DNA of 64,000 nucleotides from NCBI GenBank assembly GCA_046704245.1, contig JBJKSD010000019.1, forward strand, positions 11,708 to 75,707, given 5' to 3'. The DNA comes from Bacilli bacterium. Lineage in GTDB: Bacteria; Bacillota_I; Bacilli_A; RF39; UBA660. The number at the start of each line of letters is the position of its first letter. Within the stretch, counting starts at the first letter, position 1. The notes below the pieces were generated by a model. It did not search any database, had not been told where the DNA came from, and worked only from the letters and a program-made list of their open reading frames with translations. Shown piece after piece: positions 34,756 to 35,111 of the stretch. A program made the translations under genes and the position numbers.

Positions 34756-35111
34756 AAAATGTTTGTGAAGAATTTTATGATATTTCTCCATCAGTTATAG
34801 TTCGAATTGAATATTTTGGGGGTTTAATAATTTTTAGTGAAAGTGGAGAATTAGCACAAATACCATTAGTAGATTCTATTTTTTTAAAAGCAATTTCGTT
34901 TGTTGGAGTACATGACCTTGCAATTAAAATTTTAAAGAATGTAAATCCTAAATTGAAATTTAATAGTAATTGGATAGAAGAATATTTGCAACACGGTATA
35001 TTGACAAATAAGAGAAATAATCCAGTTATAAAATATAGTGTTGCTTTAAAAAAAAATAAAACAAATGGTGAGTTTAGCATCTGGTCTCAATTGTTTGTCT
35101 GTACCTATTAG
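34719..35111 (+). CDS. RRE/PqqD-like N-terminal part of radical SAM maturase copy 2 (frame-disrupted at an A9 run)
   Basis: 130-aa ORF (VIVRIEYFGGLIIFSESGELAQIPLVDSIFLKAI) similar in character to 31785..31970. Deleting one A from the A9 run at 35048-35056 fuses it in-frame to the rSAM ORF (..ALKKIKQMVSLASGLNC..). Confidence 0.4.
   Translation: MESKKIKKIKKIKNVCEEFYDISPSVIVRIEYFGGLIIFSESGELAQIPLVDSIFLKAISFVGVHDLAIKILKNVNPKLKFNSNWIEEYLQHGILTNKRNNPVIKYSVALKKNKTNGEFSIWSQLFVCTY

Follow-up and report, generated by a model that had tools for sequence, protein, structure and literature searches.

A StrB/SuiB-type cyclase gene interrupted at an A9 run, probably by recent replication slippage, in a two-cassette RiPP island of a Bacilli bacterium

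The window analysed here, a 64,000-nucleotide stretch of a contig from a Bacilli bacterium (GenBank assembly GCA_046704245.1, contig JBJKSD010000019.1), contains two adjacent cassettes of RiPP genes, all encoded on the + strand. The cassette with which this study is chiefly concerned opens with a precursor peptide gene of 34 aa (34651..34755; MQRIKKYAISNFLDDCHFKKGDGWKVKKSKKSKK), which has a strong SD (AAGGAGG), encodes the stretch ...HFKKGDGWKV... with its KGDGW (KxxxW) core and yields no NCBIfam or Pfam match. It is followed by two overlapping ORFs of 130 aa (34719..35111) and 344 aa (35065..36099), and then by the gene for a 576-aa protein with PPDK_N and PEP-utilizer mobile domains (36081..37811), a conserved cassette partner whose gene shares 19 nt with that of the maturase. 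The second cassette comprises a PPDK_N/PEP-utilizer-like protein of 562 aa as the corresponding partner (30077..31765), a second rSAM/SPASM maturase gene (31785..33115), hereafter copy 1, and the gene of a Cys-rich precursor (...SRSCPCKCTCTCQCQCRCTILD; 33112..33306), homologous peptides of which occur in loci L044 and L045. An accessory gene of unknown function (34060..34602) lies just upstream of the 34-aa precursor gene. Between 33.3 and 39 kb we identified neither a transporter nor an Rgg gene, and the ORFs at 37965-38981 and 39464-40642 are without informative matches; candidate promoters and terminators at 33.3-38.1 kb were about as numerous as in shuffled sequence and hence uninformative in this AT-rich DNA. 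The neighbouring genes resemble Mollicutes-type ICE genes.

The 130-aa and 344-aa ORFs occupy adjacent frames, with 47 nt in common. The former ends in ...VALKKNKTNGEFSIWSQLFVCTY followed by a stop codon and the latter opens with MVSLASGLNCLSVP..., while the +1 frameshift site between them is an A9 run (35048..35056, + strand; AAAAAAAAA) with a T on either side. We could reproduce both the run at these coordinates and the consequence that the original prediction had drawn from it, namely that removal of one A fuses the two frames: the result is a continuous ORF of 459 aa, which reads ...VALKKIKQMVSLASGLNCLSVP... and has ...ALKKIKQMVSLASGLNCLSVPISVDIYPTMR as its junction peptide. As written, the 130-aa ORF, which begins at an ATG within the precursor's GDGW codons, runs past residue 112 into an out-of-frame tail of 18 aa (NKTNGEFSIWSQLFVCTY) and terminates at TAG. 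The position of the frame change is bounded on the 5' side by a frame-1 stop at 35047-35049 and on the 3' side by a conserved LSxP motif at ~35095. The probability that an interval of 46 nt meets an A/T run of at least 9 is only 0.17% (1.2% for a run of at least 8), and hence it is very likely that the mutation occurred in the A-run. The run itself is unremarkable for sequence of 27.6% GC, and across the window A/T runs of at least 9 are depleted (2 observed vs 9.3 +/- 3.1 expected); those of at least 8 number 15, with 25.4 +/- 5.3 expected.

The fused protein is matched by the NCBIfam profile TIGR04080 (KxxxW cyclic peptide rSAM maturase) in one stretch, its residues 20-455 corresponding to positions 2-438 of the 440 in the profile (E 2e-56). 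Despite this end-to-end coverage the score of 191.4 bits falls below the curated cutoff of 500, and hence by its sequence the protein is a distant subfamily relative of TIGR04080 and no equivalog. The sequence of SuiB (5V1Q) is likewise aligned in a single block, with residues 21-453 (E 1.5e-48, 28-29% identity). The domains of the fused protein are an RRE fold at residues 26-91, Radical_SAM at 134-285 and SPASM at 364-426 (only after one A is removed). An AF2 model generated from 20 sequences attained a pLDDT of 85.9 and a pTM of 0.86, and superimposes on SuiB with a TM of 0.83-0.88 across ~450 columns. Searches with Foldseek recovered 5V1T (TMq 0.84 / TMt 0.88, 451 columns, E 3.5e-36), the next family by fold after SuiB being CteB at a TM of ~0.5. 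In the model the RRE region, residues 26-91, consists of three strands and three helices. A Pfam search gave no PqqD/RRE match for the N-terminal domain of either maturase; the RRE assignment is based on the TIGR04080 and SuiB alignments together with the AF2 fold. By the same three lines of comparison the 5' fragment (34719..35111) would contribute, in residues 1-112, an RRE-like N-terminal domain and half of the connecting helix, and it matches the TIGR04080 profile from position 2 with a conserved EYFGG motif. The 3' fragment (35065..36099) contains the radical SAM core, with the CxxxCxxC cysteines as C140/C144/C147 of the fused protein, and the SPASM domain. Judging from these alignments, the two ORFs are the halves of a single StrB/SuiB-type cyclase gene with the order RRE, radical SAM, SPASM. 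What had been described as an RRE-like ORF would accordingly be the N-terminal RRE domain, which in SuiB is fused to the catalytic domains, and the first ATG of the 344-aa ORF would be an internal Met of the ancestral protein.

A protein search recovered 19 homologues of 431-471 aa, which share 29-39% identity with the fused query over 93-99% of its length; the sole entry of 344 aa is the window's own protein. The alignment of these homologues is ungapped across the junction, and each of the 33 invariant columns is intact in the window sequence. Further, residues ~18-457 are encoded in a single frame at 12 genomic loci from GTDB. The view that both ORFs belong to one RRE-rSAM-SPASM gene, interrupted by a single base at the A-run, is thus borne out by one-piece counterparts in all 19 homologues and all 12 loci. 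Seven of these loci (L002, L004, L005, L006, L007, L009 and L015), mostly from gut 'Tenericutes', Bacilli and Clostridia MAGs, share a three-gene cassette that contains: 1) a precursor with the sequence ...HFSKGDGW; 2) a one-piece maturase of 447-463 aa; and 3) a PPDK_N/PEP-utilizer-like protein of ~580 aa, whose gene overlaps that of the maturase by 19 nt as it does in the window, and to which the 576-aa protein is 39-44% identical over its full length in each of the seven. The KGDGW motif is found upstream of maturase homologues in 13 loci. The linkers between RRE and rSAM domains in the homologues are Lys- and A-rich, with in-frame runs of A5-A8, and in ten homologous genes that we inspected the A/T runs were at most 8 nt long and all in frame, with no run of at least 9 and no split gene. 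Therefore the simplest history is an A8 to which one A was added, and the ancestral sequence may be reconstructed as TTA AAA AAA ATA AAA CAA ATG, encoding L K K I K Q M. The window's own proteins aside, the best homologues in the protein search are 36-39% identical, with no closer orthologue for a comparison of the tract; the GTDB scan did not recover the source genome, and a metagenome scan with the flanks of the A9 run and a variable gap of 6-12 nt gave no match. The gene is known from one genome, and the protein database holds no A8 allele. In Anaerococcus sp. AGMB09787 the orthologue, set against an intact gene of 95% identity, has suffered a frameshift and acquired an internal stop; on this comparison it is a precedent for decay in this cyclase family.

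In streptide the Lys-Trp cross-link is formed within the motif KGDGW (PMC5491770; PMC8326336). Since the precursor at 34651-34755 has this very core, it and the fused maturase are likely to constitute a streptide-type precursor/cyclase pair, and the peptide encoded just upstream is the predicted substrate of the StrB/SuiB-type cyclase. In the StrB/SuiB systems (KW_cyclase; PDB 5V1Q/5V1S/5V1T), as in the window, a KGDGW precursor directly upstream accompanies a protein with RRE, radical SAM (CxxxCxxC) and SPASM domains (PMC5491770, PMC8326336). We predict that the window pair, as a distant relative, works like streptide StrA/StrB and forms a cross-link from Lys C-beta to Trp C7. The two systems differ in that StrB/SuiB is associated with a StrC-type transporter/protease, whereas the window has a PPDK_N/PEP-utilizer-like partner, and in that the streptide system is under Rgg/SHP control, whereas no Rgg/SHP regulator was seen at the window locus. 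Moreover, the window gene, unlike that of StrB/SuiB, is interrupted by a frameshift.

Two other genes of the island are frameshifted. In copy 1 the break lies within the RRE at residue ~61, inside 31957-31970 (TTACATAATTTAA), which is a short T/A stretch with no long homopolymer. Its repair demands that one base be added, whereas the gene interrupted at the A9 run (copy 2) is repaired by removal of one base at residue 112. When repaired, copy 1 encodes ~443 aa, for which the one-piece homologues, 438-446 aa long, show 39-48% identity and 97-100% coverage. The two maturases are 23-25% identical and belong to different families; copy 1 has its best NCBIfam matches among mycofactocin/NirJ-like proteins and serves the Cys-rich precursor ...CPCKCTCTCQCQCRCTILD. 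The earlier claim that the same architecture is broken at the same place in both copies therefore fails on the position of the break, on the direction of the correction and on the family concerned. Because the CxxxCxxC motif of copy 1 falls in a stretch of 95 codons without a start codon, the gene as written is to all appearances dead. The accessory gene, ~181 aa when repaired, is frameshifted at a (TA)4 repeat at ~34117-34131: its pieces are MSKKSFQVQLIICEGSELEGIYI, ending in a stop, and an open frame at 34114-34602 with a 28-codon leader that lacks a start codon. In L005 the gene next upstream of the precursor, 202 aa in length, is homologous to it (tblastn E 1e-17), and the comparison of lengths favours the loss of one TA unit as the probable lesion. 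No further lesions are present in either half of the maturase or in the two other broken genes, a state to be expected of a very recent event, but just as much of an artefact or of a split that is tolerated or functional.

Our preferred reading, which we regard as probable, is that a one-piece StrB/SuiB-type gene underwent replication slippage from A8 to A9, as a recent and real mutation within a decaying RiPP island of two cassettes. A one-base gain in a homopolymer is a classic product of replication slippage. Here one A would have been added to a Lys-coding A8 in the helix between the RRE and the radical SAM barrel, and the island, with its two adjacent cassettes, would be undergoing inactivation through three frameshifts of the slippage type: the change of A8 to A9, the loss of one base within 31957-31970 and the probable loss of a TA unit at ~34117-34131. 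Translation of the gene as written would yield the 130-aa RRE fragment with its 18-residue nonsense tail, while the catalytic half, being without an SD, would be produced in small amounts or not at all. Some full-length enzyme, as a minor fraction, might still be generated by RNA polymerase slippage on A9, and reversion of A9 to A8 in the population might restore the gene; any such residual enzyme would be a by-product of the tract and no selected control device. The event is likely to be recent, because the gene has no other lesions. The marks by which a pseudogene is recognized are present, in the form of one-piece homologues, a downstream start without an SD and two more frameshifted genes in the same island.

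Of the alternatives, the one that survives best, though it is unlikely, is an artefact of sequencing or assembly, whereby the maturase in the true genome would be intact and in one piece, with an A8, and the ninth A would be a consensus error in the longest class of homopolymer. Such an error would agree with the facts that homopolymers are the commonest place for indel errors, that both halves are otherwise intact with every invariant residue present, and that the evidence comes from a single genome and run. However, runs of A8 are found inside five ORFs without any break; two of these are mid-ORF and hence informative, one of them within this very rSAM ORF. No other homopolymer interrupts a gene in the window: a scan of every homopolymer in the 64 kb for junctions of two long frames returned only the A9 site and ordinary gene ends, and when long open stretches without a start codon were sought, the other two broken RiPP genes were the only ones to emerge. 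The housekeeping genes examined are full length, in that GatA, GatB, AspRS and an ABC-F protein have end-to-end profile matches, the lack of frameshifts elsewhere in the window being judged from ORF structure and from this sample of profile matches. Several candidates for further breaks were rejected: 6069-6752 / 6724-7146 and 40759-41472 / 41469-43808 are ordinary gene junctions and no homopolymer breaks; the ORFs at 59288-59590 / 59355-59930 do not form a split pair, as the second contains a complete VTT domain; and the boundaries of the three VirB4-like ORFs look natural, each of these starting at an ATG with an SD. The independent Logan assembly of run SRR31309759, a run whose data may themselves underlie the deposited assembly, gave contigs with 100% identity to the window at 27785-36344 (8.5 kb), and all three breaks are present in them. 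That contigs assembled from k-mers should agree exactly over multiple kb suggests that the reads are accurate; contig L001 from this run, which also has A9, is the only other sequence of the site, with no length polymorphism between the two. Finally, the three frameshifts lie within ~3.3 kb, in RiPP genes regarded as dispensable, and the two that accompany the A9 run are off long homopolymers. Random errors would be unlikely to cluster in this manner, whereas such clustering is the expected remnant of real mutations under selection. With the A8 runs unbroken, the Logan sequence identical and the breaks confined to dispensable genes, a systematic homopolymer sequencing error, as had been suggested, is unlikely.

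A functional split, in which a stand-alone RRE would cooperate in trans with an rSAM/SPASM enzyme translated from its own start, is quite unlikely. Its model would be PqqD/PqqE, in which RRE and rSAM/SPASM polypeptides are separately encoded, just as the window is written. An in-frame ATG lies 9 nt past the run and 10 codons ahead of the LSxP motif that opens the rSAM core, RREs occur as discrete proteins in other systems (PMC8326336), and the leader peptide in SuiB is bound away from the RRE, so that the RRE may be partly dispensable. Yet this ATG (35065) has no SD, there being zero G in the preceding 21 nt, although an SD-like motif accompanies ~40 of 50 starts in the window; and the overlap of 47 nt differs from the natural-looking boundaries among the VirB4-like ORFs, where SD and ATG go with overlaps of 4 or 23 nt. 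A hairpin 3' of the A9 run (35061-35098) would bury the ATG, but it is weak and not significant (fold z = -1.3, with 21 of 200 shuffles as good). Further, residues 112/113 at the junction lie in the middle of helix 106-121 of the AF2 model (pLDDT 92-95), which leads from the RRE into the first strand of the barrel; the junction is thus, as modelled, neither at a domain boundary nor in a flexible linker, and the cut, in contrast to the arrangement in PqqD/PqqE, passes through a helix, leaves the nonsense tail of 18 aa on the first product and is unique among the relatives, being seen in 0 of 19 homologues and 0 of 12 loci.

The remaining alternative is that the A9 run has been kept by selection as a slippery or phase-variable point, at which slippage of replication, of RNA polymerase or of the ribosome in the +1 direction would set the amount of full-length maturase; we judge this very unlikely. 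A9/T9 is the usual slippage length for bacterial RNA polymerases, with a threshold of at least 9 A or T (PMC1088944), and partial rescue by such slippage is on record for several disrupted ORFs (PMC1088944; PMC4256274). The genes rescued or expressed by slippage on such tracts, among them dnaX of Thermus thermophilus (A9), mxiE of Shigella and tssM1 of Citrobacter rodentium (A11), have a likeness in the window, where a sense-strand A9 is found exactly at the frame change between overlapping ORFs of one ancestral gene. They differ from it in that neither the tract nor the two-ORF layout of the window is conserved in its relatives, and fusion here would need the loss of one base from the RNA (or the gain of two). 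In translation, a +1 shift of tRNA-Lys from AAA(35052-54) to AAA(35053-55) would restore perfect pairing and produce the fused sequence to the letter; the zero-frame A site, however, has no slow or stop codon, and no significant RNA structure follows. Ribosomal frameshifting by -1 on A AAA AAA was rejected, as it leads into frame 2 and an immediate stop (CFKKK and then the stop codon) with no fused protein. The likeness of the neighbouring genes to those of Mollicutes-type ICEs also speaks for a switch, in that SSR phase variation is widely used by Mollicutes, and the mod genes of Mycoplasma, like the gene in the window, have a coding homopolymer whose length sets the frame. In contrast to such contingency loci, a RiPP maturase is an atypical kind of gene, and the depletion of long A/T runs in the window suggests that they are harmful here and not exploited. 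The other two breaks fall in sequence that is not hypermutable, which gives the island the look of something decayed and not switched. Hence the slippery or phase-variable control point proposed in the original prediction is unlikely, since neither the run nor the split is found in any homologue, the break is in mid-helix, the downstream ATG has no SD and long runs are depleted. Least probable of all is a fuller version, in which the A9 run would be a working A8/A9 switch of replication and RNA polymerase slippage in a Mollicutes-like gut bacterium, setting the ratio of free RRE to full-length cyclase. Were this true, the output of cyclic KGDGW peptide would be stochastic or tunable, and the gene would be the first phase-variable RiPP maturase.

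With recent pseudogenization as the preferred reading, the frameshift is a lesion of an ordinary kind, and the finding real but mundane. In annotation the two ORFs should be treated as one disrupted gene, and expression of the cluster would need the repair of A9 to A8 as well as that of the two other frameshifts. The surrounding cassettes, with their two precursor types, rSAM/SPASM enzymes and PEP-utilizer-like enzymes, are of greater interest than the frameshift itself. A search of the literature on PEP-utilizing enzymes in RiPP clusters found no description of such a pairing. In the window the two types of RiPP precursor, one with KGDGW and the other with CxC repeats, are each accompanied by an rSAM/SPASM protein and a PPDK_N/PEP-utilizer-like enzyme, and this pairing recurs in gut MAGs.

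The maturase gene divided by the A9 run belongs to a three-gene cassette (window 34651-37811) that is conserved in L002, L004, L005, L006, L007, L009 and L015, seven of the 12 GTDB loci with one-piece maturase homologues. It comprises, in order, a precursor with the motif ...HFSKGDGW, the StrB/SuiB-like RRE-rSAM-SPASM maturase, and a protein of about 580 aa combining PPDK_N and PEP-utilizer mobile domains, whose gene overlaps that of the maturase by 19 nt. The maturase ATG at 34719 arises within the GDGW codons of the precursor (ggt gat ggA TGg; window 34708-34722), such that the two genes overlap by 37 nt. 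Because the maturase ORFs of L005-L007 likewise start inside the 3' end of an overlapping precursor gene, this arrangement suggests a translational coupling between precursor and maturase that has been conserved. In the window cassette, the PEP-utilizer-like protein takes the downstream place that a transporter/protease holds in canonical streptide loci. This enzyme may be a hitherto undescribed RiPP tailoring or activating enzyme; among the papers listed, none connected 'PEP-utilizing' with RiPPs.

A second cassette of the same logic occupies 30077-33306 in the window, and is also found at 3349-6569 in L044 and 264-3461 in L045, the two loci with homologous Cys-rich peptides. Its members are a PPDK_N/PEP-utilizer-like protein, a rSAM/SPASM maturase, which is frameshifted in the window and matched no specific family in NCBIfam, and a precursor of about 60 aa with a conserved leader of the form W-D/N-I/V-K/R-D-L...F...D-S/T-V/I and a CxC-repeat core (CPCKCTCTCQCQCRC; CGCPCSCPCPNPCGCP). 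The PEP-utilizer-like proteins of the two cassettes share 35% identity. Between the cassettes, on the minus strand (33349-33828), lies a gene for a secreted or membrane-anchored thioredoxin-like protein of 159 aa, with a PedC-like domain also present in the Logan annotation, which might serve the Cys-rich peptide as a disulfide or immunity accessory. A third, intact rSAM/SPASM protein of 572 aa with weak mycofactocin/PqqE-like matches is encoded at 8563-10281, distant from both cassettes.

The third frameshifted gene of the RiPP island, at 34060-34602, would encode about 181 aa once repaired and is homologous to L005 5332-5940; a (TA)4 repeat near 34117-34131 is the site of its break. The only A9 run in the window other than 35048-35056 lies at 37782-37790, seven codons ahead of the stop codon in the gene for the 576-aa PEP-utilizer-like protein (...IPKKKQLYKKY, then stop). 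The paralogue ends at the aligned ...ILKK, and therefore a length change at this run would alter only a short tail. Elsewhere, the StrB-like gene of Anaerococcus sp. AGMB09787 (L014 5650-7020) is a pseudogene: relative to the 95%-identical, intact gene of L012, its frame shifts at residue 42 and it contains an internal stop.

The RiPP island is flanked on one side by housekeeping genes (gatA, gatB, aspS and a SpoU-family methylase) and on the other by an integrative conjugative element of the Mollicutes/Firmicutes type, whose genes lie at about 40700-58900. They encode a PgrA-like surface-exclusion domain protein, a Mbov_0396-like TM protein, a Mbov_0397-family VirB4-like ATPase, an M23 peptidase and a CD1115-family VirD4. 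Three successive ORFs in different frames (window 53116-55752) together cover the 894-position profile of the VirB4-like ATPase: one of 106 aa matching positions 5-96 weakly (E 0.089), one of 184 aa matching 94-275 and one of 595 aa matching 294-893. Each is provided with an SD and an ATG of its own, the ORFs overlap by 23 nt and 4 nt, and this layout looks like a natural split.
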